From IMG/VR virus record IMGVR_UViG_2576861193_000002: 64,000 nucleotides of DNA; one strand, given 5' to 3'. Positions 70 to 63,099 of this stretch are shown here, piece after piece. A program made the translations under genes and the position numbers. Each line of letters starts with the position of its first letter. Within the stretch, counting starts at the first letter, position 1. Origin of the DNA: a virus. Lineage: Duplodnaviria; Heunggongvirae; Uroviricota; Caudoviricetes. The notes beneath the pieces are model-generated. The model was not told the origin of the DNA, did not search any database, and was given only the letters and a program-made list of their open reading frames with translations.

Positions 70-1164
70 TTAAGCGTCGGAGAGATCATCTTCATCACTC
101 CTTACTCTGGCATCAACCACATTAATATTGATCGCCACAGGCTGGGGATGTTCATTATCTTCCACCGTTTCGATCTCTTTGCGCAGCTTCTGGTTTTCCA
201 TTCTGCGCCGTTCAATTTCCAGTTCCTGTAGCCGTTTATCTGCACATAAAGCCCCGCCAGCAGAAAACAAACGCAACAATTCACGCCGGGCGGCAGCCTT
301 ATCCTCCAGCAGGATCTCAACGCCGAATTTTCCGAATTTTGCCCCTGCATATAATTGCCGCGCATCCCCATCAAGCAGAGTGGTATCAGCCATATAAAGC
401 TGTCCCGTTCCCTCACCGCAGCACTTCGGGCAGTCCGGATTGGGTATGGCGTTATCAACAAAGCCGAGGCCTCCATATTCCGGTTCGGGTTTGCCATCTC
501 TGGAAGCCTGCGCCGCTGCCTTGTCGAATTCTGCTATATCGCGCCACTGGTAGAGATGATTCTCGCCCCAGCAATAACGGCAGTTAACACGGCGAAATTG
601 TGCAAGCTGATTGGGGTCGGCCAGGACAATAGCCATCAACTGACTCACTAGTAAATCCAGGTCTGCGGTATAGCGTTTCTGGTACTGATTGCGGAAGTAG
701 CTGATAGCGCGAAAAACCCTGGCATTTCTAAGCATACGACTGGCGTTGCTGTTAGCTGTCGCACCTTGCCCCTCATAACCGGCTAGTCGGTACGCCTCTG
801 TCGGCTTTTTACCCTGAGCAACAAGCATCGCAAACTTAGCCTGCTGGTCAGAAATGCCGAATTCATCGGGACAGAACGAAAATTCCTCCGCGTCGCCCTC
901 ATTCAGGCCCGCATCGAATACTGGCTTTTTTTCCTGAGATTTTTCGTTCCGCTTTTGTGCAGTCTGCGCAGATTTTTTCTGCGCACTTTTTTGCGCAGTT
1001 TTGCACATTTCTGTCTGCGCATTTTTCGGAGTTTTTTTGATGTAACGACGGGCTGTTGCGTAATTCAGTCCCCTTGCTTCACACCATGCCACCGGAGACA
1101 TACCGGAGCGGGTGTATTCAGCAATATACTCCTGCTGCAACGCCCCCCAGTCCGGTCTGCTCAT
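70..1164 (-). CDS. putative terminase small subunit / DNA-packaging protein (N-terminal HTH, Cys cluster, C-terminal coiled coil)
   Basis: 364 aa ORF; position downstream of lysis genes and trkG in the late operon; HTH-like N-terminus; CPKCCGEG motif. Confidence 0.45.
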   Translation of the reverse strand: MSRPDWGALQQEYIAEYTRSGMSPVAWCEARGLNYATARRYIKKTPKNAQTEMCKTAQKSAQKKSAQTAQKRNEKSQEKKPVFDAGLNEGDAEEFSFCPDEFGISDQQAKFAMLVAQGKKPTEAYRLAGYEGQGATANSNASRMLRNARVFRAISYFRNQYQKRYTADLDLLVSQLMAIVLADPNQLAQFRRVNCRYCWGENHLYQWRDIAEFDKAAAQASRDGKPEPEYGGLGFVDNAIPNPDCPKCCGEGTGQLYMADTTLLDGDARQLYAGAKFGKFGVEILLEDKAAARRELLRLFSAGGALCADKRLQELEIERRRMENQKLRKEIETVEDNEHPQPVAININVVDARVRSDEDDLSDA

Positions 1165-1167
1165 CAG

Positions 1168-1419
1168 TTAGTCCTGATTTTTATCCACCCTGAGTAGTTC
1201 GCGCAGAGCAAAGGCATCCCCTTTTCTGGCAAGCTTAAACAATGCCGCTCGTAACTCGGCTTCACCTTTCGCTCTGCCCTTACGGATGGCCGCATAAAAA
1301 TCTGTCATTGCTTCCCGATTTTCTTTCAGTCGGTTCAGATCAACATCCAGAACGTCAGCGATTTGTTGTGCAGTCATCCGGCACGCTGCCAGAGACTCGA
1401 CTTTCGAATACGGAATCAT
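1168..1419 (-). CDS. hypothetical phage protein, possible HTH
   Basis: 83 aa ORF upstream of putative small terminase; start uncertain (overlaps upstream ORF). Confidence 0.35.
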   Translation of the reverse strand: MIPYSKVESLAACRMTAQQIADVLDVDLNRLKENREAMTDFYAAIRKGRAKGEAELRAALFKLARKGDAFALRELLRVDKNQD

Positions 1420-2308
1420 TTGTCACCCCCATTGATATGCAGGGTGTCTTCTTCCTGTATTTTTCGTGAAGGATTTTTACTGCAGCGTTGTTCCAGGTGA
1501 CCTGATGGTGAATGCGTTTATGGCTGGCACCCATCAGTGAGATTTTTACGCACGACGGCGCATACATGACGGAGTAAAAACTTTTAACGTAGGTTCCGGA
1601 ATCCAGATACAGCTCGGTCATTCCGCCGCTGTTTTTCTGCGTCTGTTTCTGCCCTAACTGGACAGCACCGATCGTCATAAACAATTCACCACAGCGACCG
1701 AGATTCGTGTACGTATTCACATCCTCGTTAATGCGCCCCATGAATGAGAACGGTCGATCAACCGAACAGATAAAGCTGTTCATTGCCTTGCGTTTCACCC
1801 ACGAAGCATGGCCGCCATTGTCACCAAGAAAATCCCCGCCCTGCGACATAGCGATGGAAAGAGCAGGTATTGATTCGTAGTACGCCAGCATTTCAGAAAG
1901 GATCGCATCCAGTTTCCTTATCGGAAAATAGGCCTGGTCATAGTTGCGATCCACCCGAAACTGGAACTCGTGATAATCATCATCGAGCTGAATGAAGTAT
2001 TTACACCCGACCAGTTTTGCCAGGTCGAAACAGGCATTACGGGCGTAAAAAATTGAGCGGCGGTCACAGAAATTATCGGCTTCGTCAAAACGACTGGCGA
2101 TATCGGCTTTGGAAAACACCAGCACCTGTTCACCAAATTCAGCCATGTACTGATTTCGTGTCTTATCTTCATCATCAACAACGATAAAAATTTTCCCGGT
2201 ATAGCCAGCACGACGCAACGTCCGGTAAGTCAGAACTTTGTCCGGTCGCCCGTGAGTCAGAATAAAGGCGCAAAAATCATCACGCATATTCCTCCTCCTC
2301 ACCACCAT
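1355..2308 (-). CDS. uncharacterized phage protein (acidic DDED / LDDD motifs; possible nucleotide-sugar transferase-like fold)
   Basis: 317 aa ORF translationally coupled to ParB-like gene; not recognised as a known family. Confidence 0.5.
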   Translation of the reverse strand: MVVRRRNMRDDFCAFILTHGRPDKVLTYRTLRRAGYTGKIFIVVDDEDKTRNQYMAEFGEQVLVFSKADIASRFDEADNFCDRRSIFYARNACFDLAKLVGCKYFIQLDDDYHEFQFRVDRNYDQAYFPIRKLDAILSEMLAYYESIPALSIAMSQGGDFLGDNGGHASWVKRKAMNSFICSVDRPFSFMGRINEDVNTYTNLGRCGELFMTIGAVQLGQKQTQKNSGGMTELYLDSGTYVKSFYSVMYAPSCVKISLMGASHKRIHHQVTWNNAAVKILHEKYRKKTPCISMGVTNDSVFESRVSGSVPDDCTTNR

Positions 2309-3071
2309 GCATGATCTCCACCATGCGCTGCGTCATCCGGACAAATCCATTTTCAATAGCCTGCTGATAATCAATGATCACCAGCGCCGACTCCTCGAAA
2401 AAACACTGAATTTCAGAGGGGGCGTGAGCGTAATAGTCCGCAATTCTGCTGAAATTAAACACCGTGTGACGTTCTGCCGCACACAGGAGGAATTTCTCAA
2501 TATCAGGCTCAAGGGACGCCGAACGTATCCGGCTGATCAGCTCCTGAGTTTTCGTATCGTCGTACAGTTCACTGATATCCGGTTTACCGCCCGACGGCTC
2601 ATAAACAGGCGTATCAATTTTCGTCGTATACGGCTCCTCCTCATTTCCTGTACCGGGCAAAACATCCGTCAACAGTTCATCAATTTCTGTCGGGATGAAG
2701 CCTGTCAGGGAGACATCAAAATCAGCATTGATTAGGTCCGACAGCTCCATCCGCAACAGATCTTCATCCCAGCCAGCATTCATCGGCAGGCGATTATCTG
2801 CCAGGCGGTACGCCTTTTTCTGCTCATCCGTCAGGCCAGACAGAACAATGACCGGAACAGAATCCATTTTGAGCATTTCAGCCGCCATAACACGACCGTG
2901 ACCCGCAATAATTTCGCCCTTTTCGTCAATCAGCACCGGATTAGTCCAGCCGAATTGCTTAATACTTTCTACCAGTTGTGCCACCTGCTCAGGGCTGTGC
3001 GTCCTGGCGTTGTGCGCATACGGTGACAATTCTTGTAATGGGCGATAGACTATCTTTAATTTCTCGCTCAT
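2280..3071 (-). CDS. ParB-like nuclease domain protein
   Basis: 263 aa; N-terminal ParB/Srx-like motif (…EIIAGHGRVMAA…); phage late region between trkG and terminase. Confidence 0.7.
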   Translation of the reverse strand: MSEKLKIVYRPLQELSPYAHNARTHSPEQVAQLVESIKQFGWTNPVLIDEKGEIIAGHGRVMAAEMLKMDSVPVIVLSGLTDEQKKAYRLADNRLPMNAGWDEDLLRMELSDLINADFDVSLTGFIPTEIDELLTDVLPGTGNEEEPYTTKIDTPVYEPSGGKPDISELYDDTKTQELISRIRSASLEPDIEKFLLCAAERHTVFNFSRIADYYAHAPSEIQCFFEESALVIIDYQQAIENGFVRMTQRMVEIMHGGEEEEYA

Positions 3072-3208
3072 ACAGCCTTGCTTTATGAATAAAACGCACC
3101 CCAGCAGCCAGTGCTACTGGGGACGGAGGGGTTGCTGGTAAAGTTAGGTATTGGATCAATGAGTGAGTCAACATAATATTAAACTCACAATTATAAATCA
3201 GCCATATA

Positions 3209-4666
3209 TTAGGAGCGCCAAAAAAAACCTGAAAACAATATAATAACAGGATAAATTTCAAGGCGACCAAGAATCATAGCTATGCACATTAAACATTTTG
3301 CAATGTCATTAAGCACTCCGAATGACGATACAGTAGCCCCAAAACCTAATCCCATATTATTAATACATGCAGCCACTGTTGCAAATGATGTAAGAAAATC
3401 ATATCCCATACCATTTAACACCAGTATAAAAAACACCGTGAAGAGAGTATAAAGAAAAAAGAAACTCCATACAGACCTCATTACACGATCTGTAACTATC
3501 TTCCCTCCTACATTTACACTCAACAACGCTCTGGGATGAGAAAGCTGATTTATCTCGTGTTTGCTTTGTTTGAAAAGTATAAGAAATCGAAGTGACTTAA
3601 TTCCACCACAAGTTGAACCTATACATCCCCCAAAGAAACTTGACAACAGCAAAAACACTATCGTGTGCGTGGGCCAACTTGCATAATCCTGCGTAGCTAA
3701 ACCATTATCAGTGAGCATGGAGCTGGCAAGAAAAAACGAATGAATAAAACTTCCATGCAAGTCATACATACCTATATGCCAGACCTGGAAAGAGGTAACA
3801 ATGATCACCCCTAAGGCTATTAACAGAAAGAAACGAAGTTCAATATCTCTGATTAAAGGTTTTATCGTTTTCCTGCTAATAACAATATACCAAAGAGTGA
3901 AGTTGAAAGCCGATAGCAGGGAAAAAGAACCAGCCACCAGCTCAACCAAATAGTTATTAAAATATCCGATACTCTCGCTATGAGTTGAGAAACCACCAAG
4001 CGAAACTGTGGAAATCCCGTGACAAATAGCATCAAACAAAGGCATTCCTGCAAGTCTATAACAGACAATACAAGCAATACCTAATAAAGAATAAGTTATC
4101 CACAGTGTCCGTGACGTATCGGCCAGGCGGGGAGTGAGTTTGTCATCCTTAAATGGCCCCGGCATTTCTGACTGATAAAGCTTTGCACCACCAATACCCA
4201 ATAATGGCAATACAGCAACCGCCAGAACAATAACTCCTAAACCACCTATAAAATTTAACTGTGACCGATAGTACAAATATGCCCGAGGTAATGAACTAAC
4301 ATCATCAATTACAGTTGCTCCTGTTGTTGTTATTCCAGAAACCCCTTCAAACAGAGCATCAATGAACGTTAAATTAAGTTCTGAGTCAATCCATAAAGGG
4401 AATGCACTAATAACAGAAAACAAAATCCAAAACATTACAATTATAATAAACCCATCACGGGTACGTAATTGAATGCCAGATTTCTTAGTTGTATACCACG
4501 CTCCGCCACCAATGCAAAAAAATATAACGAAAGTTATAAAGAAAACGAACAGGCTTTTTTCTTTATAAAACAATGCTACAACCATTGGTGGCAACATTGA
4601 AAGACTATAGAGCCAAACCAGGAACCCACACATATGAGTAACAACTCTTACATGAGATGTATTCAT
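3209..4666 (-). CDS. trkG: Trk potassium uptake protein TrkG (prophage-borne TrkH paralog)
   Basis: Polytopic membrane protein; N-terminus MNTSHVRVVTHMCGFLVWLYSL recognised as TrkG; AT-rich gene inside Rac, as in E. coli K-12. Confidence 0.9.
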   Translation of the reverse strand: MNTSHVRVVTHMCGFLVWLYSLSMLPPMVVALFYKEKSLFVFFITFVIFFCIGGGAWYTTKKSGIQLRTRDGFIIIVMFWILFSVISAFPLWIDSELNLTFIDALFEGVSGITTTGATVIDDVSSLPRAYLYYRSQLNFIGGLGVIVLAVAVLPLLGIGGAKLYQSEMPGPFKDDKLTPRLADTSRTLWITYSLLGIACIVCYRLAGMPLFDAICHGISTVSLGGFSTHSESIGYFNNYLVELVAGSFSLLSAFNFTLWYIVISRKTIKPLIRDIELRFFLLIALGVIIVTSFQVWHIGMYDLHGSFIHSFFLASSMLTDNGLATQDYASWPTHTIVFLLLSSFFGGCIGSTCGGIKSLRFLILFKQSKHEINQLSHPRALLSVNVGGKIVTDRVMRSVWSFFFLYTLFTVFFILVLNGMGYDFLTSFATVAACINNMGLGFGATVSSFGVLNDIAKCLMCIAMILGRLEIYPVIILFSGFFWRS

Positions 4667-4803
4667 ATCTAAATATTCTTTCAATTATAACCACCTTGCT
4701 GCAATATTATGATTATACTGTATAAAATTTAACTCCTCTTAGATCTTACTTCACTGTTCCTTATGAAACAATCATCAAAATGAATCATATTGTAGTTAAG
4801 ATT

Positions 4804-5268
4804 TTACTTTAAACACTGCTCGGTTATGTATTGCTGAGCACCTTCAAGTTGGGCCTGCATCATTACCAGTCGTTCCCGGAGGGTGAAATAATCCCGTTCA
4901 GCGGTGTCTGCCAGTCGGGGGGAGGCTGCATTATCCACGCCGGAGGCGGTGGTGGCTTCACGCACTGACTGACAGACTGCTTTGATGTGCAACCGACGAC
5001 GACCAGCGGCAACATCATCACGCAGAACATCATTTTCAGCTTTCGCATCAGCTAACTCCTTCGTGTATTTTGCATCGAGCGCAGCAACATCACGCTGACG
5101 CATCTGCATGTCAGTAATTGCCGCGTTCGCCAGCTTCAGTTCTCTGGCATTTTTGTCGCGCTGTTCTTTGTAGGCGATGGCGTTATCACGGTAATGATTA
5201 ACACCCCATGACAGGCAGACGACGATGCAGATAACCAGAGCGGAGATAATCGCGGTTACTCTGTTCAT
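4804..5268 (-). CDS. Rz i-spanin (inner membrane spanin)
   Basis: Near-identical to lambda Rz by eye ([15 protein letters not shown]… [41 protein letters not shown]). Confidence 0.9.
4863..5048 (-). CDS. Rz1 o-spanin lipoprotein, embedded in Rz in another frame
   Basis: 61 aa, lipobox VVGC, proline-rich ([15 protein letters not shown]); classic embedded Rz1. Confidence 0.85.
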
Positions 5269-5762
5269 TGCTGACCCCACAAACAGATTTCACGCTCAAT
5301 CTCACGACGAGTCATGAGACCTTTCCATTGCTTACCGCCAGCATATGTCCAGCGACGTAGCTGATCACATGCGCCTTTGATATCGCCCTGGTTTATTTTG
5401 CGAAGAAGCGTCGATGTTCTGAAATTGCCAGCACCCACGTTGTAAACGAATGAGTAAAGAGCGCCGCGCGTTGTTTCCGGTATATCGACTTTGATGTACG
5501 GGTTAATTTGTCTGGCGACCGTGGCAAGGTCTTTATTCAGCAGGGCTTTGCATTCTGCTTTGGTATACGTTTTACCGAGCATGATGTCTTTTCCTGTATG
5601 CCCGTGACATACAGTCCATACACCAACAATATCTTTGTATGGTATGTAGCTGACACCTTCCAGACCATCGTTACCACTTGGGCCAGTGATTAACACTGAT
5701 GCTATAGCAATTGCTCCGCCACCAATAGCAGCAGCAACGACTTTTCGTAATGATGGAGGCAT
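5265..5762 (-). CDS. SAR endolysin (phage 21 R-like lysozyme)
   Basis: 165 aa; N-terminal SAR segment [16 protein letters not shown]; lysozyme-like core; directly downstream of holin. Confidence 0.9.
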
Positions 5763-5977
5763 TATTCACCTCTCGCAGCCTTGCGCTTATCTTCTTTAAT
5801 CTTGAAATAAAGGTTTGTCAGGTACGTCAGCAGGCCAAATACCAGACTACCCAGCACACCGATTGCAGCCCACTGTGACGGAGTTACTCTATCGAGCAAC
5901 TGTAAAAACCAGTAGCCAGCACTGCCTGCGGAGGTGCCGTAGGCAATGCCTGTTGAAATTTTGTCCATGGATTTCAT
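5762..5977 (-). CDS. pinholin (phage 21 S-like) with MKSM dual start
   Basis: [26 protein letters not shown]… matches S21; SD ggaggtga upstream; starts at 5977 and 5968. Confidence 0.85.
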
Positions 5978-6228
5978 AGCCTCACCTCCGCACGGAACGG
6001 ATGGCATAGTTATTATATGTAGGCTTTCAGACACATCAATCAGAGCCTTAATTGATATATATGCTGGAGACGATGCAATATAAAAAGCTCGCCGTAGCGA
6101 GCTAATAAAATGTATTTCTCTGATATTATGTTTATTTGTATTAGCTCAGACTTGACATCACAGGTTTCGTATATAGAACATCATCAAATCTGTCAGTTTG
6201 CTATGAATGAGATATAGTAATTGAAGAG

Positions 6229-6624
6229 CTAACCTCGCATGTCAAAGCCAGATTTCTGAAAATCTCTGTAGACTTCCGGATTGTTGAAGGCCGGAAATTT
6301 GGCTTTATGAGCTGCGGACTTTATCGCTTCGCAATAGGCTTTATCACCGTTACTGGTAGATATTTTTAACGCCGTGCCATCCTGAGAGAATTCCATATGC
6401 AACCTGCATTTTTTCCCTTTCCAGTTATGCGGCTCATCAAGTTTGGCATTAATTGCAGCTCTGATTCCCCGCGCTTGCGCCCCCCATTCATCCTGATCAT
6501 CCCAGCGTCCTGAACTGCAACTACCTGTAGCAGTAGTTTTGTGGCAATCTGAAGGGTGTAAAGGTGTGCATCCCGCAACAAAACCGACCCAAAAAGTCAA
6601 CATAACGATTTTCTTTAATCCCAC
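6229..6624 (-). CDS. prophage lipoprotein with divergent TolA domain III-like C-terminus
   Basis: 131 aa; signal peptide + lipobox (VAGC); C-terminal region alignable with the paralog at 6775-7203. Confidence 0.6.
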   Translation of the reverse strand: MGLKKIVMLTFWVGFVAGCTPLHPSDCHKTTATGSCSSGRWDDQDEWGAQARGIRAAINAKLDEPHNWKGKKCRLHMEFSQDGTALKISTSNGDKAYCEAIKSAAHKAKFPAFNNPEVYRDFQKSGFDMRG

Positions 6625-6774: not shown

Positions 6775-7203
6775 TCAGGGTTTAAAATCCAGCACCCCAT
6801 TTTGAAATACTTTATATACTTCCGGCGAAGGGGGGGCAGGTATATCAGCATTCTTTATCGCATTCATCGCTTCACGACATAAATCGAGGTCTCCACTTTC
6901 TCTTTTAACCTCCAGTAGAAGGCCATTCGGGGCCATATGCATTCTCAGTGTACACTCTTTTCCTGAATACTTACTCGCATCCCCGAACTGTTTTTCGATG
7001 GCGCTCTTGATTTGATGGGCATACAGACGGATATCCTCACTAACATCAGAAGTACGTTCAGATGAACTCACATACTGTGTCTCTATTGCTTTATCGGAGT
7101 AATATGATGTACGGTCATGATAATTTGTCGATACAGCATCAGTGCACCCGATAATAATCCCACTAATAATCAACGTAAGAATTGATGCGCTACGAAAACC
7201 CAT
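6775..7203 (-). CDS. prophage lipoprotein carrying a TolA C-terminal domain (domain III)-like module
   Basis: 142 aa; lipobox IIGC; C-terminus …IKSAIEKQFGDASKYSGKECTLRMHMAPNGLLLEVKRESGDLDLCREAMNAIKNADIPAPPSPEVYKVFQNGVLDFKP closely resembles E. coli TolA C-terminus as recalled. Confidence 0.7.
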   Translation of the reverse strand: MGFRSASILTLIISGIIIGCTDAVSTNYHDRTSYYSDKAIETQYVSSSERTSDVSEDIRLYAHQIKSAIEKQFGDASKYSGKECTLRMHMAPNGLLLEVKRESGDLDLCREAMNAIKNADIPAPPSPEVYKVFQNGVLDFKP

Positions 7204-11020: not shown

Positions 11021-12220
11021 ATGCCATTTGTTATTTATGTGTTTACTATCAGTGCCTTTGCGCTCGGACTCGCGGAATTTGTCCCCATTGGGCTGACAGA
11101 CGTTATGGCTCAGGGGTTGTGTGTGGGTGTGGAGCAGACCGGGGCAGCGGTTACAACCTATGCACTGGGGGCAACGTTCGCGGCACCCGTACTGTCTGCG
11201 CTGACAGCAAGCTGGAGCCGGAAAAATGTAATGCTTACAACTGCCGTTGTGTTTACTGCCGGTAGTCTGGCGGCCGCGTTTGCAGCCACATTACCTCAGC
11301 TCCTGTTAGCGCGGTTCATTGCTGGTCTGGGACACGGCCTGTTTCTGGCTGCGGCATCCAGTACCGCAGCTCGTCTTGCTGGACCGGGTAAAGCAGGCAG
11401 AGCGGTGGCTGTGGTATTTGGTGGCTTTACTCTGGCGATGGCAATCGGCGTACCGCTGAGTACATGGTTGGGGGGGGTGGTCTCATGGCGTCCAGTTCTC
11501 GGCGCTATTGCCGCTTTTGGCGCGTTCGGATTCCTTGGACTGTTGTTCGGTATGAAAGATCCCGTACGCAGCGTGCCCGGTGAACATAGTGACTCAGCAA
11601 TGCAGAATATCGGCATGCTGTTTAACCGTAAGTTGCTGGCCGGCGCGCTGGTTACGGTGCTGGCGTATGCAGGCTCGTTTACGGATTACACCTTTATCGC
11701 ACCTATTCTGACGCAGGTGACAGGGGTTACCGGAGCAACGGTGAGTCTGTTTATGCTGGTTTACGGTATTACAGCTGCGGTAGGTAATATTCTTGGTGGG
11801 AAACTTACCGACAGCATGGGGGTTAATCGTGCCAATATACTCATCATTAGCGGCATTGTTGTTGTCGTGCTTGGTATGTGGCTGCTGTCATCCTCACCGG
11901 TGAGCATGGGCATTCTGGTTGCGCTGCTGGGTATGGTGACATTTGCCGCAGTGCCGGCACTGCAGGCCCGTCTGATTGGTGTCGCTGAGCAACATGCTCC
12001 TCATGCGCATGGTGTTGCTGCCGGCCTGAATATTGCGGGCTTCAACTCAGGTATAGCGCTGGGATCAGTACTGGGCAGCATTACTATAAGCCACGCCGGT
12101 ATCGTGTATACCGGTATCAGCGGTGCGATTGTTTCTCTGCTCGGCCTGCTGTTGCTGCTTGCACAAATCCGTCGCAGCCACAGTCGTAAATTTCAACAGG
12201 TTAAAATCGTAGGCCAGTAA
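11021..12220 (+). CDS. MFS transporter (cargo gene)
   Basis: 399 aa, ~12 TM, Gly/Ala-rich MFS signature; GC-rich versus surrounding phage DNA. Confidence 0.85.
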   Translation: MPFVIYVFTISAFALGLAEFVPIGLTDVMAQGLCVGVEQTGAAVTTYALGATFAAPVLSALTASWSRKNVMLTTAVVFTAGSLAAAFAATLPQLLLARFIAGLGHGLFLAAASSTAARLAGPGKAGRAVAVVFGGFTLAMAIGVPLSTWLGGVVSWRPVLGAIAAFGAFGFLGLLFGMKDPVRSVPGEHSDSAMQNIGMLFNRKLLAGALVTVLAYAGSFTDYTFIAPILTQVTGVTGATVSLFMLVYGITAAVGNILGGKLTDSMGVNRANILIISGIVVVVLGMWLLSSSPVSMGILVALLGMVTFAAVPALQARLIGVAEQHAPHAHGVAAGLNIAGFNSGIALGSVLGSITISHAGIVYTGISGAIVSLLGLLLLLAQIRRSHSRKFQQVKIVGQ

Positions 12221-12231
12221 AGGGAGGTTAT

Positions 12232-12924
12232 ATGCTTACCCGTGAAAATATGCTTAATGGCACATTTGTCAGGGTGCATGAAGCGCTGCTCCCGGCGAAT
12301 ATGCTCTGGGACGCTGAAAAAATACGCGCATCAATGAACTCTACTCTGGAGGAGCGCCCGACGGGTGCTCCTGTCTGGATATTTGCCTACGGGTCATTGA
12401 TGTGGAATCCCGTGCTGGCGATTGAAGAAATGCAACGGGCCCGTCTGAAAGGATGGCAGCGCAGTTTCTGCATTCGTTTGATATCCGGACGAGCGACTCC
12501 TGATGTCCCCGGCAGGATGTTATCGCTCGACGAAGGTGGAATTACCGAAGGTATTGCGTTCAGACTGCCGGAATCGACTCTTATTAATGAGCTGGAAATT
12601 GTCTGGACGCGCGAGATGATAACCGGTCTTTACCGTCCGGTCTGGGCAGACGTTTCGCTAGGAAACGGTGAGGAAATTCAGGCGCTGGCTTTCGTATCAG
12701 ACAGACTGCATCCGCATTATGAACAGGACAATCTTACAGCGACCGTAGCGTTGAGCATCGCATCTGCCCGTGGAGACATTGGCACGAATGCAGATTATGT
12801 ATGGAAACTGCAGGCCACTCTGGGTGCGTTGGGAATACGGGATGATTACGTGAGTGAACTGGCCCTTGCTCTGCATGAGGCTCCCTGTAACGATAAACTT
12901 CATCAGCGAGGCGCTTCACTATGA
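12232..12924 (+). CDS. ChaC/gamma-glutamylcyclotransferase-like protein
   Basis: 230 aa; IFAYGSLMWNP motif typical of GGCT/ChaC fold. Confidence 0.7.
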   Translation: MLTRENMLNGTFVRVHEALLPANMLWDAEKIRASMNSTLEERPTGAPVWIFAYGSLMWNPVLAIEEMQRARLKGWQRSFCIRLISGRATPDVPGRMLSLDEGGITEGIAFRLPESTLINELEIVWTREMITGLYRPVWADVSLGNGEEIQALAFVSDRLHPHYEQDNLTATVALSIASARGDIGTNADYVWKLQATLGALGIRDDYVSELALALHEAPCNDKLHQRGASL

Positions 12925-13802
12925 GCCATCTGAGCCATCTGCGAACGTTTCTTGAGGCCTATCGCTCTGGCTCCTTTTCAAAGGCGGCAGAACTACTGGG
13001 CATCACTCAGCCCGCGGCGTCACAGCATATCCAGTCTCTTGAGACTCTGGTTGGTAAGCGTCTGTTTATCAGGCAGGCCAGAGGCGTGACGGCAACCGAA
13101 GCTGCGGATGAGCTTGCCCGCTCAGTTTCACCCTTCATTGATGGTCTGGAAGAAAAGCTGTCCTCTTTCCGGTCAGGCTCTGTACGCGGGGGAACAATTA
13201 ATCTGGCAGGACCGCCAGATTTTATTCATTCCCGGCTTGGGACAGTAATGGCTCCACTAATGAAGGAGGGGTATCGCCTACGCTTTCATACCGGCAATAA
13301 GCAACGTATTTATTCCCTTTTGCATGACGGGAGCGCCGATCTCGCTGTTACCGCATCTATGCCTGATGACCGTCTGTACGGCTATGCACATCTACTGACT
13401 GAACGCATGCTCCTTGTTCATGCTCCCGCCATGTCAGAGATCATCGGATCAGAACCTGGTGCTGAAACGCTTGCCTCATTACCGCTGATTGCTTATGACG
13501 AAGAGTTGCCACTGATTAGAGCGCTCTGGGCCTCCATGTTTCAGAGAGCCCCTGAGATGCAGGCTACATTCACCATTCCGGATTTACGTATTATCCGCGA
13601 CTTGGTCTGTGACGGCCACGGGTGGACAGTGCTGCCGGATTATCACTGTGACAATGACCTGAAAAGTGGTCGCCTGATTTCAGTGACACCTGCAGACCTC
13701 GCTCCGACTAATCATCTTTATCTGGTCTGGAACAAAAGGACGGCTAATAACAGCCGAACCGCCTATGTTCGGGATTACATTCTTAAAACGTTTCCGCGTT
13801 GA
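12921..13802 (+). CDS. LysR-family transcriptional regulator
   Basis: 293 aa; N-terminal HTH (…FSKAAELLGITQPAASQHIQSLE…); overlaps previous gene by 4 nt. Confidence 0.85.
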   Translation: MSHLSHLRTFLEAYRSGSFSKAAELLGITQPAASQHIQSLETLVGKRLFIRQARGVTATEAADELARSVSPFIDGLEEKLSSFRSGSVRGGTINLAGPPDFIHSRLGTVMAPLMKEGYRLRFHTGNKQRIYSLLHDGSADLAVTASMPDDRLYGYAHLLTERMLLVHAPAMSEIIGSEPGAETLASLPLIAYDEELPLIRALWASMFQRAPEMQATFTIPDLRIIRDLVCDGHGWTVLPDYHCDNDLKSGRLISVTPADLAPTNHLYLVWNKRTANNSRTAYVRDYILKTFPR

Positions 13803-13846
13803 TGTTTGAAACGGATGATTGGCGATGCGTATCATAAGTTACGTAT

Positions 13847-13870
13847 GTCCGCTTCTGGCACAAAGCAGAC
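13847..13870. repeat. hairpin repeat R1 (GTCCGCT-tctggcacaa-AGCAGAC)
   Basis: 24/30 identical to R2; sits between the LysR and DUF2254-like genes. Confidence 0.55.
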
Positions 13871-13932
13871 GCCCACTCTCACGCGAATGCTTTGCCCTTG
13901 ACTTGCCAACAACCGTATCGCTTGCTCCGCAA

Positions 13933-15225
13933 CTATGGTTTTTTATTAGAATCTTCGCCACTAAATAAATTATAATAAATTGATTTTATTAGATATCTGT
14001 CAGAATCTATATGGTCAGCACGAGTAGCATGCTCTAATGTTTCAAATGCTAGGGTTTGTGCGGCTTCAGCAAAAATTCCAGGCCAACCCTTACTCAGCAT
14101 CGACAGTCCTTTAAGTACCCTTATCTGAATTTCCCTCATACTGGCACCATCGCGCGCAACAGGTGAGAAAAAGTCTTCAAGTAGATCGTTATTCTGAAGT
14201 GGTGCAACATGTACAGAAGGATATTTCACTTCTATTTCATCAGATTTATTCTGCGCGTAAGCGGAAAGTATACGTACACCTCTGCCAATGACATCAATGG
14301 CGGTTCCAGGATCGTTCACTGCGGGGGAAAGGGCTCGGCAGGCTATTTCGGCCATGACGCTAAGACAAAATCGGGGGTCCTGAGCAAATGAACGTACATC
14401 CGAGACAATAATCGTCTCAAGTAAATCGGTGCTGATTGATGACTCCTGGCCCTGACTCAGGTACAAAACTGGCGTGGACGGATGTATGAAACTGCCCGGC
14501 TGCGCCACGAGGTATACATGACGGGGATCATTGGTCAGCAGCTTGCTGAGTTTCACCATATCAACATATTCAACATAGCCAATCTTTTTCGGATAAACTG
14601 CAACCGTTCCTTTCGGCTGTTCATTGTTCTCAAGCCATGGATATCCGCCGAGACAGGGATTTCTTGCTCTCGCAATAAATGTTTCGATGGCCGCCTGTTC
14701 TACTTTTGCCGTTGTCTCACCAACCCTCCCCAGAGAGGTCAAATGCTGTATCCAGCGAAGCAATGTGATGAGGATTAAGGCAATGACAACCAGTGTTACA
14801 ATGAATAAAATGACTCTCCCCCTTTCTCCATAAGCTCCCATATTGAGGGCAATAATCCCTACCAGACTGAAGAGAAAAGAACCGATGAAGGTGGCCAGTA
14901 CATTTTGTGTGGTGACGTCTTCAACAACTAAACGAGTAGCTCTGGGAGTCACATTAGTAGTGGCTGAACCGTAGGCTGTGACCATGATGCTCAGCGAAAA
15001 TGTGGTCACTGCCAGCATACTCGATGCCAGTATGTTCAGAATGTTATCGACTGCTTCCGCACCAACCTTCACGGAAACCGACTCAGGTATCATTGATTTA
15101 AAAAGAATTGATAAAAGGGCCGTTATTATTGCGACAATTGCGAATAACGTTGCCCTGAACCATAGTTTTTTAAATGTCTGCTTCAGCATCCATTTCCAGC
15201 GTGAAATCATTCTGCATTCCCTCAT
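13933..15225 (-). CDS. DUF2254-like membrane protein
   Basis: 430 aa; N-terminal TM helices then soluble domain. Confidence 0.55.
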   Translation of the reverse strand: MRECRMISRWKWMLKQTFKKLWFRATLFAIVAIITALLSILFKSMIPESVSVKVGAEAVDNILNILASSMLAVTTFSLSIMVTAYGSATTNVTPRATRLVVEDVTTQNVLATFIGSFLFSLVGIIALNMGAYGERGRVILFIVTLVVIALILITLLRWIQHLTSLGRVGETTAKVEQAAIETFIARARNPCLGGYPWLENNEQPKGTVAVYPKKIGYVEYVDMVKLSKLLTNDPRHVYLVAQPGSFIHPSTPVLYLSQGQESSISTDLLETIIVSDVRSFAQDPRFCLSVMAEIACRALSPAVNDPGTAIDVIGRGVRILSAYAQNKSDEIEVKYPSVHVAPLQNNDLLEDFFSPVARDGASMREIQIRVLKGLSMLSKGWPGIFAEAAQTLAFETLEHATRADHIDSDRYLIKSIYYNLFSGEDSNKKP

Positions 15226-15273
15226 ATTGCAGCCGGGATAAATAAATGCCGCCTCTGTGGCGGCATGTTGCTG

Positions 15274-17277
15274 TTAACGAACCAGATGCAGGAAGTGCAG
15301 GTGTTTTTCGTACTGGTCCAGTATGTCATTAATCAGCTGTTCCTGATTCCAGCCCATTACATCATAATTTTGGCCGCCCTCTTTGAGATAGACTTCAGCG
15401 CGATAATATCGATGTTGTTCACTCTGCTGCTCATCATTATCCAGCGCAGCGAGCGCGAAGGTCGGTGAGTTATACCCGCGAAGCCTCACTTCATATATAT
15501 AATTCAGCTCGTTGCCCAAATCGACTTCAAGGCGAATACGATCCTCGGCGGCGTCACTGATGTGGCTTATCGTTCCCTGCTTGTTAAGTTCCTCCTGAAC
15601 CAGCGTCATGGCGGGTTGGATAATGTCGTCCATAAAACGTTTCACAAGAGAGCGCTTCGGCAAATACGCGATATTGCGTAACCTTCTCTGCCAGGGAATT
15701 GGGTTACGTGCAGCCGTAGGAGCAATAGTCGCCATGCTAAGGCTTTCACGCTTGGTCAAATCCCGACGCAGGGCTTTTAACAGTCCGTATATGGATATTA
15801 ATAAGATAACTGAGAAGGGCAATGCACTCGCTATCGTTACGGTTTGCAACGCACTCAGCCCCCCTGCGATCAGCAGGGCAATAGCAACAACGCCCATGAG
15901 CGATGCCCAGAAAATTCGCTGCCAGACGGGCGTGTTTGCCACCCCACCTGATGCCAGAGTATCCACAACCATTGCCCCCGAATCAGCAGACGTTACAAAG
16001 AAGACGATGACCATCGCCATTGCAATGAATGACAGCACGGAAGAGAACGGGAAATGCTCCAGGAAATTAAACAGGGCAAGCGCAACATCCTGCTGAACGG
16101 TATTGGCGAGGTCAGTGGCGCCCTGGTTCATGATGAGATAGATGGCGCTGTTTCCAAACACCGTCATCCACATGAGCGTAAAGCCGGCGGGAACAAACAA
16201 CACGCCAGTCACGAACTCACGAATTGTCCTGCCGCGGGAAACGCGTGCAATGAACATACCTACAAACGGCGACCATGAAAGCCACCATCCCCAGTATAAT
16301 AATGTCCAGCCCCCCAGCCAGTTGCTCGACTTGGGTTCATACGCGTAAAGGTTGAACGTTTTACTCACCAGTTCCGACAGATAACCACCCGTATTTTCCA
16401 CAAATGACTTCAGCAGAAGCACAGTGGGACCCAGGCACAAGACCAGCGCCAGGAGCAACACCGCCAGGCCCAGATTAAGCTCAGACAGGATGCGTATTCC
16501 CTTGTCCAGGCCGGACACCACCGAAATCGTCGCTAACCCCGTGATGACCACGATCAAAATGACCTGTACCGTTTCATTGATGGGCACGCCGAAAAGATGG
16601 TTCAAACCGGCATTCACCTGCAATACACCGTAACCCAGCGATGTTGCAACGCCAAAGACAGTGCCTATCACGGCGAAGATATCAACCGCGTGGCCTATAG
16701 GCCCGTAAATGCGATCGCCGATAATGGGATAGAGCGCAGAACGCAGCGTTAAAGGCAGACCGTGACGGTAACTGAAAAAGGCCAGAATCAGCGCCACGAT
16801 GGCATAAATTGCCCATGCGTGCAGACCCCAGTGGAAGAACGTCAGGCGCATGGCTTCCTTCGCTGCCGCAACGGTCTCTGGAGTGCCGACAGGTGGCGAA
16901 AGATAATGCATCACAGGTTCGGCAACGCCAAAGAACATCAGGCCGATCCCCATCCCTGCCGAAAAAAGCATCGCGAACCAGGAGTGGTAGCTGAAATCAG
17001 GCTGCGCATGGTCTGGGCCCAGCTTTATATCACCGTAACGTGAGAGTCCAAGGAACGTGACGCTCAGTAAAATCAGGGCCACAGCAAGTATGTAGAACCA
17101 GCTGGCATTCGTGAAGATTTGTTGCTGAAGTAGTTTAAAATTTTTGTCGGCGACATCCGGGAATACGGCGGCAAAGGCGACAAGAAGGAAAATTAGCAAA
17201 GCAGATGTAAAGAATACCGCTTTGTTAATCTGGCTTGTAGACTTCTTTGGGGTTGTATCATTTTCACTCATAATCAT
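15274..17277 (-). CDS. BCCT-family (betaine/carnitine/choline) transporter
   Basis: 667 aa; 12-TM BCCT-like core with Trp-rich signature (…GGWTLLYWGWWLSWSPFVGMFIARVSRGRTIREF…). Confidence 0.85.
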   Translation of the reverse strand: MIMSENDTTPKKSTSQINKAVFFTSALLIFLLVAFAAVFPDVADKNFKLLQQQIFTNASWFYILAVALILLSVTFLGLSRYGDIKLGPDHAQPDFSYHSWFAMLFSAGMGIGLMFFGVAEPVMHYLSPPVGTPETVAAAKEAMRLTFFHWGLHAWAIYAIVALILAFFSYRHGLPLTLRSALYPIIGDRIYGPIGHAVDIFAVIGTVFGVATSLGYGVLQVNAGLNHLFGVPINETVQVILIVVITGLATISVVSGLDKGIRILSELNLGLAVLLLALVLCLGPTVLLLKSFVENTGGYLSELVSKTFNLYAYEPKSSNWLGGWTLLYWGWWLSWSPFVGMFIARVSRGRTIREFVTGVLFVPAGFTLMWMTVFGNSAIYLIMNQGATDLANTVQQDVALALFNFLEHFPFSSVLSFIAMAMVIVFFVTSADSGAMVVDTLASGGVANTPVWQRIFWASLMGVVAIALLIAGGLSALQTVTIASALPFSVILLISIYGLLKALRRDLTKRESLSMATIAPTAARNPIPWQRRLRNIAYLPKRSLVKRFMDDIIQPAMTLVQEELNKQGTISHISDAAEDRIRLEVDLGNELNYIYEVRLRGYNSPTFALAALDNDEQQSEQHRYYRAEVYLKEGGQNYDVMGWNQEQLINDILDQYEKHLHFLHLVR

Positions 17278-17611: not shown

Positions 17612-18034
17612 TCACTTCAATAAATACCGAACATCCCCCTGATAAAACGACAATATGCGCTGCATAACTTCGCTCTTCCGGCACTCGCGACAGATTATGT
17701 TTAGGCGACTGTCGTAGCGACGTATTTCTCCGTCAGGTAATGACCAGATAAGGTCCGGATCAACCACAACCGGTTTCTTCAGCTTTGCCCTCGATAATTT
17801 TTTGCGGGCATTTTGCCAGTCTTTACGAGCCTGTTCAGACGGGAATAACCCGTAGCCAGAATTGTATACATCGCCACTGGCAACCAGCTCTCTGGCCAGA
17901 ACGCTCATCAGATATCTTGTTGCCCCAGTTTTAGCTTCCAGTTGTCGTAACGTCTCGCGCCCACTCTGGCGTACGAGTTCAAGAACCTGCCCTTTAATTT
18001 TTTCCCGCTCTTCTTGTGTAAAAACTTTTGCCAC
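17612..18034 (-). CDS. hypothetical phage replication-region protein
   Basis: 140 aa ORF immediately downstream of O-like initiator; no recognised helicase-loader motifs. Confidence 0.45.
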   Translation of the reverse strand: MAKVFTQEEREKIKGQVLELVRQSGRETLRQLEAKTGATRYLMSVLARELVASGDVYNSGYGLFPSEQARKDWQNARKKLSRAKLKKPVVVDPDLIWSLPDGEIRRYDSRLNIICRECRKSEVMQRILSFYQGDVRYLLK

Positions 18035-18074
18035 AAGCCCTCCTGAAAATTACCTCATGACCAGAAATTAACAC

Positions 18075-19151
18075 TTACCCCCTGAAGCCCGGCGGAATTT
18101 CGTTATCCGGTTCAGAAATATGATTCACACAACGCTGGTTGTTCGTGCCGCTTACCGGGAGCAACCAGGGGTTCTCAAAATTCCGGTCCGGTCCAAAAAA
18201 CGTCGTCGCTCGCTGAACAAATTCCGTTCCCGTTTTCCCGGTAGCCGCCAAGTATCTTGCGTAACGCCTCACGCCATCCAGCATGGCCTCTGGTGGCACC
18301 CCCTCGCGTAATCTGGCCTTCCAGGCACTGAAAGCGGATTTCTTCGGGTTTGCCCCAGCACGCAACGGGTACTCCCGCCAGACCTGTTCGAACACATCCG
18401 GATAATCCACTCGTCCCACAGACTGCCCGGTGTTTTCCGGGACTACCCGATCGGCTTCCCGCTGAATGGCGGAATCGGCTTCAGGCTGCTGCAGTTGGTG
18501 TGATTGCTCCGCCCTTGCGGTCATCACCTGCTGCACAGCGCCCGAATCGGCTTTCAGCGCATACGCTGAATCGGCTTCCGGTGTCGTGCCTGCTGGCTGA
18601 CCAAGATTGACGGTCTGAACATCCCCTGCCTGGTTCGTGGCGTTTTTTACGCCATGGACCATAGTGTTTTGATCTTCTTGATCTGTATCTTTATCTGTAT
18701 CTTTATCTGTCGTGACTCGTCGTGACATGTGCGTGACATTTCGTGACGCGCCGTGACAATCGCCATTTTGTTCCCGCTTTCTTTCCCTCTCTCGCTGCGC
18801 CCTCTTGCGCTCTGCAGGAGATTTTGCGGTTTGCGAAATATTGCCGTTGTCCTCTTTAAGCACCTGGCGTTTTTCCCATCCAGTGATTAAATCACCATCA
18901 AGTACCCGCCCCTGCATCGTCTGCAAAATTGAATCAATTACCTCTTCTGTCACGTCGAGCGCACTTGCCAAATCTTCTGTCGTGACATCAATGTGACCTC
19001 GCGTGACATTTCGTGACGCGCTCACCAGGAGGTGGATATACACTGCCATCACTGTTGCAATTGGCTGTCCTGACACCCTGGCAATTGTTCGCCACTTAGG
19101 GTCATTTGGCATGTCATGCCATAATCTGAGCCAGGCGTTAGCCATACTCAC
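18075..19151 (-). CDS. replication initiator (O-like N-terminus, YdaU/DnaT-like DUF1376-type C-terminus)
   Basis: 358 aa; encloses two iteron clusters; acidic DKDTDKDTD linker; position after ydaS/ydaT. Confidence 0.65.
   Translation of the reverse strand: MSMANAWLRLWHDMPNDPKWRTIARVSGQPIATVMAVYIHLLVSASRNVTRGHIDVTTEDLASALDVTEEVIDSILQTMQGRVLDGDLITGWEKRQVLKEDNGNISQTAKSPAERKRAQRERERKREQNGDCHGASRNVTHMSRRVTTDKDTDKDTDQEDQNTMVHGVKNATNQAGDVQTVNLGQPAGTTPEADSAYALKADSGAVQQVMTARAEQSHQLQQPEADSAIQREADRVVPENTGQSVGRVDYPDVFEQVWREYPLRAGANPKKSAFSAWKARLREGVPPEAMLDGVRRYARYLAATGKTGTEFVQRATTFFGPDRNFENPWLLPVSGTNNQRCVNHISEPDNEIPPGFRG
18682..18757. repeat. candidate replication origin: AT-rich tandem repeats plus five CGTGAC iterons at ~10-bp spacing
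   Basis: CGTGAC at 18711, 18721, 18732, 18742, 18752 preceded by atctgtatcttt tandem repeats, inside the initiator gene. Confidence 0.55.
18981..19017. repeat. second iteron cluster (4 x C/TGTGAC at 10-bp spacing)
   Basis: Motif starts at 18981, 18992, 19002, 19012. Confidence 0.5.
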
Positions 19152-19216
19152 CTCTTTTGATACCGAATCTTTTTACTCACAAATTGCCGGAAGTGATCCG
19201 GTATGAATATTGCGAG

Positions 19217-19642
19217 TCAATGCACAGCCACAATATTTCCTGCAGGGCCACCACGATTCATCTGGTTGAAACCAGCGATCGCCACTGCGACAAAATCATC
19301 AGCGTCTCTCACCAGTCGTTCCCGCGTCTCCACTAGTTCCCGAAAATAGGCTGAGCTATGGCTGCGCATTCGGGCCACCAGCAGAGGTGGCATTGCTTTT
19401 TCGATAGCTGGTAACAACGCCTGAATTTTTTCAACTGCATCAGGGGTGTCTTTCTCTACCCAGCGGAAAATTTTCTGGGTATTGCGAGCCAGGGCTTCCG
19501 GATGGCTGTCGTCATACAGTTCTGGGAACGTCATACCCAGTTCAAAATAAGCCCTGGTTATTTCAGCTGCCGGAACTTTTTCACCGTCCGGATGCGCCCA
19601 GGCATTCATCGCCATGCGGATGTGTTCATGCTTGATTTTCAT
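19217..19642 (-). CDS. ydaT: YdaT-like protein (CII-like regulator / putative toxin domain)
   Basis: 141 aa; synteny racR - ydaS - ydaT - initiator as in Rac. Confidence 0.65.
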   Translation of the reverse strand: MKIKHEHIRMAMNAWAHPDGEKVPAAEITRAYFELGMTFPELYDDSHPEALARNTQKIFRWVEKDTPDAVEKIQALLPAIEKAMPPLLVARMRSHSSAYFRELVETRERLVRDADDFVAVAIAGFNQMNRGGPAGNIVAVH

Positions 19643-19907
19643 GAATCAAGCTCCTAGAAAGTGGTTGTGTTAACATTTTGGTATCTTCCAGCTCGGGCCA
19701 AATATTCATCCAATCAAAAGGCCTTAGTTGCTGACGTGTAACTTCACCATTACTGGCTCGCTCAATAAGGACACATAACGATGCCCCTAACACTTGACCT
19801 TTACTCAATGCCTTTCTTAGATAACCGATGCTGGTACCACACTCGCATGCAAACATACGCTGTTCATCTGACGAAAGAGAATTGAGAAATATTCTTAATT
19901 CTTCCAT
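19626..19907 (-). CDS. ydaS: YdaS-like Cro/C1-type HTH protein
   Basis: 93 aa; divergent from repressor gene; HTH (…ECGTSIGYLRKALSKGQ…). Confidence 0.65.
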   Translation of the reverse strand: MEELRIFLNSLSSDEQRMFACECGTSIGYLRKALSKGQVLGASLCVLIERASNGEVTRQQLRPFDWMNIWPELEDTKMLTQPLSRSLIHENQA

Positions 19908-20007
19908 AGCTACTCCTTAGTAAACACAGCAAAGAATACCCATAGGTAAACAAAAGTCAATACCCACAGGTTGTTTACCTTGCAGTAATCGCATCTATTA
20001 TTTACCT
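19908..20007. promoter_or_regulatory. divergent immunity promoter/operator region (pR/pRM-like)
   Basis: Three related dyad sites of the TACCCAT(A/G)GGTA family (aatacccataggtaaaca, tacccacaggttgtttacc, tttacctatgg). Confidence 0.55.
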
Positions 20008-58085: not shown

Positions 58086-58163
58086 AATGTTTACTCCTGA
58101 ATACATGTTTACGCGTTGCTACGCGAAAAATAGAAAAATTCGTGATGGGTTGTGAGGCAGATT

Positions 58164-62897: not shown

Positions 62898-62898
62898 G

Positions 62899-63099
62899 TT
62901 ACTTATTCCCCATTCGCGCGTCGTGTTCCTCTTGCGCTCGCTTGTTCTCCTGTGATTTGAAATAATAGTTAACGGCAAATGTGCCAATGGTTGATAAGAT
63001 ACCCACAAAGACGGCAACGTCATTGATGGTTATCGCGCCGAAAAAAGCAGTTACGGCCCCAGTCACATACGCACACGCCGCCCGTATTCTGTCGAACAT
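62899..63099 (-). CDS. holin
   Basis: 66 aa, two TM segments, charged C-terminus; SD ggagg; stop overlaps endolysin start. Confidence 0.7.
   Translation of the reverse strand: MFDRIRAACAYVTGAVTAFFGAITINDVAVFVGILSTIGTFAVNYYFKSQENKRAQEEHDARMGNK

Follow-up and report, generated by a model that had tools for sequence, protein, structure and literature searches.

What do two overlapping genes, one of them ParB-like, do beside the packaging genes of a lambdoid prophage? The question is raised by a 64,000-nucleotide stretch of caudoviral DNA (IMG/VR record IMGVR_UViG_2576861193_000002; hereafter, the window), in which an earlier reading of the letters and open reading frames (ORFs) alone, hereafter the sequence-only reading, had placed a ParB-like nuclease and an unrecognised protein with acidic motifs between trkG and a putative small terminase gene. 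Both ORFs are found there, on the minus strand (2280-3071 and 1355-2308), within what the RefSeq annotation of an identical stretch and its flanks indicates to be an intact Rac-type lambdoid prophage. Our analysis identifies the pair as a cassette of a GT-A glycosyltransferase and an obligate partner protein, which recurs among viruses infecting haloarchaea and many bacterial phyla. We favour, with a probability of about 0.5, partner-guided glycosylation of phage DNA late in infection as its function.

The 317-residue product of the downstream gene, previously regarded as unrecognised, is recognised by Pfam, PHROG and recent runs of the Prokaryotic Genome Annotation Pipeline (PGAP). The suggestion that profile searches might place it in a glycosyltransferase family was borne out, with 121 bits against Pfam TAGT (PF20691; cut-off, 27.5; expect value [E], 8.4e-35; residues 15-229). 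It also matches PHROG 842 (E 1e-103), and newer PGAP runs name the E. coli protein 'GREB1-related protein'. TAGT stands for TET-associated glycosyltransferase, and the protein is a clear member of this GT-A family. The acidic motifs are the VVDDED and QLDDDY of a GT-A glycosyltransferase, the second of which holds the DxD motif (D109-D110-D111 in the 317-residue numbering; 1976-1984) that is invariant in 16 sequences; because the catalytic motifs are invariant, the protein appears to be under selection as an enzyme. Its AlphaFold model (mean predicted local distance difference test [pLDDT], 63) is of good quality for the N-terminal, Rossmann-like half but of poor quality for the other, C-terminal half, which is basic (isoelectric point [pI], 9.5). 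When this model was used as a query, Foldseek retrieved the GT-A enzymes SpsA, AvpGT, SunS and glycogenin from the PDB (E ~1e-4) and viral proteins with the TAGT domain from BFVD (E 2e-20; template modelling score, 0.6-0.68). A sequence search against solved structures gave no match, and PADLOC, used to look for a known defence system, returned nothing for the glycosyltransferase, matching only the ParB domain of the partner, to a methyltransferase model.

The start of the glycosyltransferase on which 15 homologues and PGAP agree is M8 of the longest ORF (ATG at 2287-2285; MRDDF...), which yields a protein of 310 residues. The previously noticed overlap of the two genes is accordingly genuine and shorter, amounting to 8 nucleotides as opposed to the 29 of the longest ORF. 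The minus-strand junction reads GGT GAG GAG GAG GAA TAT GCG TGA, with the glycosyltransferase ATG and the partner stop codon TGA (2282-2280) overlapping as ATGCGTGA. A Shine-Dalgarno sequence, GAGGAGGAGG, at 2300-2291, containing the strong ribosome-binding site GAGGAGG, precedes the ATG and lies within the codons of the EEEE tail of the partner. To judge from the nucleotide sequence, this is a textbook arrangement for translational coupling.

The upstream gene encodes a strongly acidic protein of 263 residues (pI 4.5; net charge, -25), which combines an N-terminal domain of the ParB/Srx fold, an acidic linker and a glycosyltransferase-specific C-terminal domain. The N-terminal domain scores 28.9 bits against Pfam ParB_N (PF02195; cut-off, 26.3), is similar to Spo0J (E 2e-5), and is the only part through which a Foldseek search of the partner model matched ParB, Noc, KorB, Srx and SerK; against TIGR00180, the protein falls below the cut-off. 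The best profiles for this domain are not those of partition proteins but the ParB domain of phage DNA methyltransferases (phrog_498, E 1e-50; PADLOC MTase_II, E 2e-38). It contains the P-motif G57-H-G-R60 (2892-2903) as well as D92-N93, and among 52 partners G57 and N93 are each kept in at least 90% and R60 in 60-90%. Partition proteins of the ParB family (Spo0J, Noc and KorB) share with it the N-terminal fold, the GxxR P-motif and the box III Asn; unlike them, the partner is strongly acidic, is encoded in a late phage operon and lacks a helix-turn-helix, a ParA partner or motif and the canonical dimerisation domain. Specifically, the protein has no Pfam hit to a helix-turn-helix or dimerisation domain, no other recognisable DNA-binding domain, no ParA-binding motif (N-terminal LG[KR]GL) and no membrane segment. 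A partition function was rejected on the grounds that ParA, the helix-turn-helix and the ParA-binding motif are all missing, that the gene lies in a late operon and that no parA occurs in the prophage annotation. The word 'nuclease' in the sequence-only reading should also be dropped: Pfam, NCBIfam and PADLOC detect no nuclease domain, and the fold found is that of ParB/Srx, with nothing to indicate nuclease activity. 'ParB-like nuclease' is a label with a historical origin.

The C-terminal domain of the partner (~110 residues), which is acidic and carries no annotation, opens with an invariant peptide, Y148-T-x-K-I-x-x-P-x-Y157-E-P (2595-2630), which is followed by a helical core, FLxxAAxRHxVFNF..IADYYAHA..ESALVIIDY..AIxNGF. 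Across the 52 full-length partners, its conservation far exceeds that of the ParB domain. Nothing significant came from Pfam scans of 23 members or from searching the PDB with a profile of the domain; a faint, recurrent 20-residue match to PF23887 (Phage L5 gene 47-like; E ~0.03; 9 of the 23 members) was treated as noise. It is modelled with low confidence by AlphaFold (pLDDT 68 for the whole partner), and the peptide with the invariant Tyr falls in a low-pLDDT segment that is probably flexible.

The 263-residue protein corresponds to YnaK at full length; E. coli K-12 has only a truncated version. The only literature found on YnaK is a 2026 screen in which overexpression of the truncated K-12 fragment raised the minimal inhibitory concentration of six antibiotics 3- to 6-fold, with no mechanism given (PMC12924614). 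On NZ_AP027769.1 (21715-21972), where the DNA is 100% identical to positions ~2814-3071 of the window, PGAP calls ynaK a 258-nucleotide pseudogene 'missing C-terminus' despite the intact 263-residue ORF, which is probably an artefact of taking the truncated K-12 gene as the model.

The two genes are inherited together over a wide range of viruses. Scanning one genome per species with the glycosyltransferase yielded 80 loci (46-100% identity) from Proteobacteria, Bacteroidota, Firmicutes, Verrucomicrobiota, Acidobacteriota, Saccharibacteria and others, and a partner homologue lies immediately upstream on the same strand in 78 of them, the other two being cut at a contig end. Reciprocally, in 80 viral contigs chosen by the partner domain, the enzyme is encoded directly downstream of that domain in 65; of the 15 others, 4 have it upstream. 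For the last 11, no TAGT was found beside the domain by tblastn with the E. coli enzyme; ORF maps of these loci show an extra gene after the domain, and Pfam scans of representatives find a TAGT behind the extra gene, except that one locus has, instead of an inserted gene, a TAGT with an N-terminal extension of ~185 residues. Both genes have thousands of homologues, and among 5,426 complete E. coli genomes the cassette is intact in 867 (about one in six; coverage of the 2.1-kb stretch, at least 80%) and persists as remnants in ~740 more; because of these numbers, the pair must be regarded as real, far beyond chance. Between E. coli and Bacteroidota, Firmicutes or a haloarchaeal virus, the cassette keeps 45-60% identity.

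The extra genes are diverse, encoding a fusion of a His-phosphatase with a cytidylyltransferase-like domain, a radical S-adenosylmethionine (SAM) protein, a SAM methyltransferase, or a fusion of CofD/YvcK-like and HAD domains. In loci with the last of these, a TAGT lies upstream in one (L180) and none was located in the other (L197). Further loci carry a second TAGT paralogue, a TAGT-methyltransferase fusion or a methyltransferase-ParB fusion. By analogy, the pattern is that of a cassette recruiting tailoring or donor-synthesis enzymes, as hypermodification pathways do, and the variability of these insertions may be the signature of an arms race.

The partner domain also occurs on its own. A stand-alone C-terminal domain of 130-140 residues is encoded directly before the enzyme in T4-like Vibrio phages (~191-196 kb; 54% identity) and in Bacteroidales phages. 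A full-library phmmer search recovered the domain in 1,189 clusters at 50% identity, mostly at the C-terminus of proteins of 250-300 residues, and no natural fusion with the glycosyltransferase was seen among the top 150 representatives, the long ORFs in loci of high guanine-plus-cytosine (GC) content being upstream read-through. Because the C-terminal domain is better conserved than the ParB domain and also exists alone, the universally conserved core appears to consist of this domain and the enzyme, with the ParB domain as a frequent N-terminal addition. Our literature search found no paper that describes the partner domain or tests the pair.

In most loci, the pair directly precedes the genes for the small and large terminase and the portal; the large terminase (TerL) gene lies no more than 4 kb away in 37 (and probably 7 more) of the 62 loci with enough flanking sequence. 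HK97-like contigs follow the order HNH, one or two small ORFs, partner, enzyme, small terminase (TerS), TerL, portal, protease and capsid. For instance, the pair constitutes ORF1 and ORF2 of Lactobacillus phage c5, the first genes after cos, and genes 21 and 22, upstream of the terminase, of the haloarchaeal virus HHTV-2. The modules with the stand-alone domain are placed elsewhere, namely, among primase, exonuclease and helicase genes in Vibrio phage pv27 and among DNA polymerase A and sliding-clamp genes in Bacteroidales loci. The pair is found alongside cos/HNH, P22-like pac and T4-like packaging systems, which argues against a function bound to any single packaging mechanism.

Two of these genomes carry other genes of note. 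In an HK97-like contig with the pair (L168, a Joint Genome Institute metagenome contig), four consecutive GT2-family genes (17837-20316) come just after the capsid gene, a run reminiscent of virion glycosylation clusters. In the T4-like phage pv27 (OR413349; L252, 30930-32042 and 39401-39928; L251, 25388-26251), genes for a PurZ-type '2-aminooxy adenylosuccinate synthetase' and for an HD phosphohydrolase hint at a 2-aminoadenine genome, and the phage also encodes a thymidylate synthase accompanied by dihydrofolate reductase (DHFR) and a small heptose-1-P adenylyltransferase-like protein.

Comparison with characterised systems bears on the likely substrate. The characterised phage member of the family, the TAGT of T2/T6 (β-glucosyl-HMC-α-glucosyltransferase), adds a second glucose to α-glucosyl-5-hydroxymethylcytosine (hmC) in DNA. 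Like the cassette enzyme, it is phage-encoded and belongs to PF20691, with the GT-A fold and a DxD motif; unlike the latter, it needs a deoxycytidine monophosphate (dCMP) hydroxymethylase and an α-glucosyltransferase, neither of which is present here. The two sequences are only remotely related, and the available parts of the published accounts mention no ParB-type partner of the T2/T6 enzyme. A catalytic GT-A domain related to that of the cassette enzyme is also found in GREB1 and in the base-J glucosyltransferase (JGT). However, GREB1 is a 1949-residue protein O-linked N-acetylglucosamine (O-GlcNAc) transferase that modifies Ser/Thr of the estrogen receptor ERα, JGT acts on the 5-hydroxymethyluracil (hmU) made by JBP, and neither has a ParB-type partner.

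Two further systems resemble the partner side of the cassette. In the 5mYOX/ParB thymine dioxygenases, a ParB homologue that comprises an NTP-binding and a C-terminal domain but no DNA-binding domain is encoded beside the DNA-modifying enzyme to which it is specific, frequently in the vicinity of the terminase (O'Toole et al. 2026, PMC13229309); by experiment, such a phage homologue activates its cognate dioxygenase on double-stranded DNA (PMC13229309). The cassette shows the same arrangement, a ParB homologue without a DNA-binding domain that adjoins the enzyme gene, is co-inherited with it and is, by its junction, translationally coupled to it. Here, however, the client is a glycosyltransferase instead of a dioxygenase, the C-terminal domain of the partner is distinct, highly conserved and also stand-alone, and dependence of the enzyme on its partner would follow by analogy with the dioxygenases. 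The second system comprises the fusions of ParB domains to DNA methyltransferases, which share the related N-terminal domain recorded above. Such fusions are typically located beside packaging genes. The fusion genes are enriched in prophages (Kaljevic et al. 2025, PMC12704722). In these proteins, ParB is covalently attached to a methyltransferase for canonical bases, whereas in the cassette an adaptor domain takes the place of the methyltransferase and the glycosyltransferase is a protein of its own. Iyer et al. in 2013 reportedly defined TAGT and are said by later papers to have proposed a ParB-directed modification apparatus acting during packaging. The idea of ParB-directed modification was confirmed experimentally for the thymine dioxygenases in 2026 (PMC13229309).

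The proposal of the sequence-only reading that the pair could be a DNA-modification or anti-restriction module thus gains from the TAGT family membership and the methyltransferase-type ParB domain; no gene for an acceptor base accompanies the pair, and we infer, on the following grounds, that DNA is the substrate. The link to DNA is suggested because the N-terminal domain matches the ParB domain of phage DNA methyltransferases, because the stand-alone modules lie among replication genes and because the C-terminal half of the enzyme is basic; late timing is suggested because the pair directly precedes the terminase genes in most loci. In the scheme that we favour, the translationally coupled two-protein cassette would be expressed in the late operon of the intact Rac-type lambdoid prophage, and the C-terminal domain of the partner would serve as a dedicated glycosyltransferase-binding module that docks or activates the enzyme. 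Where present, the ParB domain could tie the complex to DNA in an NTP-gated manner, a role suggested for 5mYOX/ParB and KorB/KorA and ascribed also to the ParB-methyltransferase fusions, and the basic C-terminal half of the enzyme would contact DNA. Acting on replicated phage DNA, shortly before or during packaging, the enzyme would move a sugar from a host nucleotide-sugar onto the phage genome, which might then be guarded from the nucleases of the next host, and late expression would spare the chromosome of the lysogen. A more specific version of this scheme, namely, glycosylation of DNA without a hydroxymethyl-pyrimidine precursor, at a canonical base or another position in DNA, would be a kind of DNA modification not known before, and is rather unlikely in our estimate.

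Several observations weigh against glycosylation of DNA. The cases of phage DNA glycosylation that are understood all begin with the synthesis of a hydroxymethyl-pyrimidine; T-even phages, TET/5mYOX phages and base J are examples. A serious weakness is that all characterised relatives glycosylate a hydroxyl group (glucosyl-hmC, hmU, or Ser/Thr in the case of GREB1) and that a hydroxylated base is lacking here. The annotation of the whole Rac-type prophage lists no TET/JBP, no thymidylate-synthase-like hydroxymethylase and no α/β-glucosyltransferase, and such precursor genes are likewise absent from the complete 31.8-kb phage c5 and from the ±10-kb neighbourhoods of four contigs with per-gene Pfam calls. 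GREB1 indicates, by analogy, that the glycosyltransferase family can act on proteins. In addition, the partner is strongly acidic and without a recognisable DNA-binding domain, some lineages do without its ParB domain, the AlphaFold models are of moderate quality only, and the literature search yielded no experimental evidence of modified DNA in these phages.

The search for a precursor pathway gave the same result elsewhere. No TET/JBP (5mYOX) dioxygenase, α-glucosyltransferase or thymidylate-synthase-like hydroxymethylase was present among 30 neighbour proteins scanned (20 cluster representatives and 10 inserted genes), nor did the inventories examined reveal an association of the TAGT family with such a dioxygenase. 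A dCMP hydroxymethylase with an α/β-glucosyltransferase alongside, as in T-even phages, occurs in neither the prophage nor c5, and no hidden hydroxymethylase or TET was seen in the first 100 kb of pv27 and its 13-kb module. The PHROG 842 name, 'beta-glucosyl-HMC-alpha-glucosyltransferase', is nevertheless carried by the records NC_019449 (c5), NC_021340 (HHTV-2), NC_024206 (phi jlb1) and OR413349 (pv27), and is likely an over-annotation that spreads through RefSeq phage records lacking an hmC pathway, such as that of the complete c5. A 2026 survey reports solitary TAGT homologues of undefined function in 288 of 753 glycosyltransferase-bearing phage genomes.

The main rival explanation, which we consider unlikely, is O-glycosylation of a protein, the acceptor being either the Y148-T-x-K-I-x-x-P-x-Y157-E-P peptide of the partner itself or a terminase or virion protein, in the manner of GREB1 (O-GlcNAc on Ser/Thr) or glycogenin (Tyr). 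Protein glycosylation would need no hydroxylated base, and there is precedent in the TAGT-related GREB1. The partner peptide offers an invariant Tyr in a probably flexible segment, and, with hosts that range from E. coli to Haloarcula, this peptide must bind a target that is either phage-encoded (the enzyme) or universal; in addition, one locus (L168) has extra GT2 genes beside its capsid gene. However, the position equivalent to T149 varies (T, S, A or N), the conserved peptide could equally be a docking motif, and a nucleic acid target is suggested both by the methyltransferase-type ParB domain and by the location of the pair in replication modules.

A classical two-step pathway with a hidden first step, in which an unrecognised phage or host enzyme supplies 5-hydroxymethyl-pyrimidines or the first sugar, as the RefSeq/PHROG label implies, is improbable. 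It has the family name and precedent on its side, as well as the thousands of phage 5mYOX-like contigs missed by the Pfam TET/JBP model, the C5 cytosine methyltransferases encoded upstream in 11 of the 80 loci and the thymidylate-synthase homologue of pv27. That homologue, however, adjoins DHFR, as true thymidylate synthases do, and the inventories of the Rac-type prophage and c5 contain neither an α- or β-glucosyltransferase nor a candidate of suitable size or fold, the hypothetical proteins of c5 all being no longer than ~210 residues. Furthermore, the T-even TAGTs are distant, with at most 24% identity (T4-like Aeromonas phages), and that of T6 was undetected by tblastn.

Equally improbable is glycosylation of a small molecule or nucleotide, such as an immune signalling nucleotide or the nucleotide pool, as an anti-defence measure, with the ParB/Srx domain as an NTP-binding or kinase-like enzyme. 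Srx and the serine kinase SerK, both true enzymes, are indeed among the structural matches of the ParB/Srx domain, ParB-fold proteins bind diverse NTPs, and some cassettes include genes resembling those of nucleotide-sugar metabolism. Against this, the ParB domain is optional and the conserved part of the partner is a helical C-terminal domain of non-enzymatic appearance; moreover, the module is consistently linked to packaging or replication genes, and this glycosyltransferase family offers no precedent.

Another rival makes the ParB-like protein the effector of a structural or packaging function (in cos/pac recognition, as a nuclease helper of the terminase or in prophage partition), with the glycosyltransferase incidental; it would accommodate the position beside the terminase, the older 'ParB-like nuclease' and 'partition' annotations and the proposal attributed to Iyer et al. 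(2013) of ParB directing a modification apparatus during packaging. It is very improbable: ParA, a ParA-binding motif and a helix-turn-helix domain are all lacking, the pair is indifferent to the type of packaging system and in some phages resides in a replication module, and the invariant catalytic motifs imply that the enzyme is selected as an enzyme. Least probable of all is lysogenic conversion, in which the enzyme would modify an envelope glycan of the host (O-antigen or teichoic acid) to exclude superinfecting phages. GT-A enzymes such as the prophage-encoded TarP act in this way, and the CofD/YvcK-like and cytidylyltransferase-like neighbours bring envelope-polymer pathways to mind; however, the pair lies in a late operon away from att/int, neither protein has a membrane segment, the pair is present in c5 (no integrase or CI-type repressor annotated), in the T4-like pv27 and in an archaeal virus, and it is obligately linked to a ParB-type partner.

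If the cassette modifies DNA, as we favour, it would represent either new chemistry or a new acceptor, achieved by a minimal two-gene cassette, with relevance to restriction evasion, the sequencing of temperate phage genomes and enzyme tools; if instead the partner or another protein is glycosylated, this would be a phage system of a new kind for protein glycosylation, linked to the handling of DNA. In both cases, the cassette adds an example to an emerging theme, that of ParB-fold proteins serving DNA-modifying enzymes as adaptors. The locus displays the solitary-TAGT class in the best-known host, as a coupled two-gene cassette with an obligate, previously undescribed partner domain and no precursor pathway.

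Table 1. Coordinates of the cassette, its neighbours and the second prophage in the window
Feature	Position	Strand	Remarks
Holin, lysozyme, Rz/Rz1	4804-6034	-	First in transcription order
trkG	3209-4684	-	TrkH profile, E 1e-144
Terminator-like hairpin and T-run	3099-3122	-	After trkG, 28 nucleotides before the partner ATG
Partner protein, 263 residues	2280-3071	-	ParB/Srx fold; full-length YnaK
ParB/Srx N-terminal domain of partner (residues 1-135)	2667-3071	-	
C-terminal partner domain (residues ~145-250)	2322-2639	-	
Coupling junction, partner/glycosyltransferase	2280-2300	-	
Longest ORF of glycosyltransferase gene, 317 residues	1355-2308	-	
Glycosyltransferase, 310 residues from conserved start	1355-2287	-	GT-A fold; Pfam TAGT (PF20691)
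Small-terminase-like ORF, 83 residues	1168-1419	-	phrog_309, E 8e-23
Small terminase	70-1164	-	Terminase_2 and phrog_51
Second prophage: tail fibre	32542-34731		
Second prophage: GpJ	36060-41243		
Second prophage: tape measure	47048-49255		
Second prophage: portal	56712-58106		
Second prophage: TerL	58164-59648		
Second prophage: lysozyme	62406-63023		

Every gene from position 70 to ~6,000 of the window is on the minus strand (Table 1). In the Rac-type prophage, intR adjoins ttcA; recET, kilR, sieB and ralR are on one side, and the large terminase, portal, P22-type capsid and lambda-like tail genes on the other. The cassette is upstream of the small terminase gene, as the sequence-only reading stated; it is not the immediate neighbour of that gene, for the 83-residue ORF (1168-1419) intervenes and overlaps the 3' end of the glycosyltransferase gene. 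Homologues of this ORF, of 83-139 residues, are located between the enzyme and TerL in Veillonella and Firmicutes prophages, and its product may be a second DNA-binding protein of the small-terminase type. Together with the small terminase, it belongs to the downstream packaging context, outside the cassette proper. On the other flank, trkG, with its low GC content (0.38) and its own terminator-like hairpin (3122-3099), is a moron placed between the lysis genes and the cassette, and late antiterminated transcription would need to read through that hairpin.

The part of the window from ~32,000 to 64,000 is a second lambdoid prophage, which offers an internal contrast in that no copy of the ParB/glycosyltransferase pair was found in it. 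Within the first prophage, non-phage cargo occupies positions 11021-17277, encoding an MFS transporter, a gamma-glutamylcyclotransferase, a LysR regulator, a DUF2254 protein and a BCCT transporter, and this block adjoins an ISEsa1 remnant and the relBE/hokD toxin genes. Finally, upstream of the lysis cassette, two minus-strand ORFs of 131 and 142 residues (6229-6624 and 6775-7203) encode the TolA C-terminal domain (PF06519; E 1e-14 and 2e-23, respectively), and their products might mimic, as decoys, the TolA domain that colicins and filamentous phages exploit.

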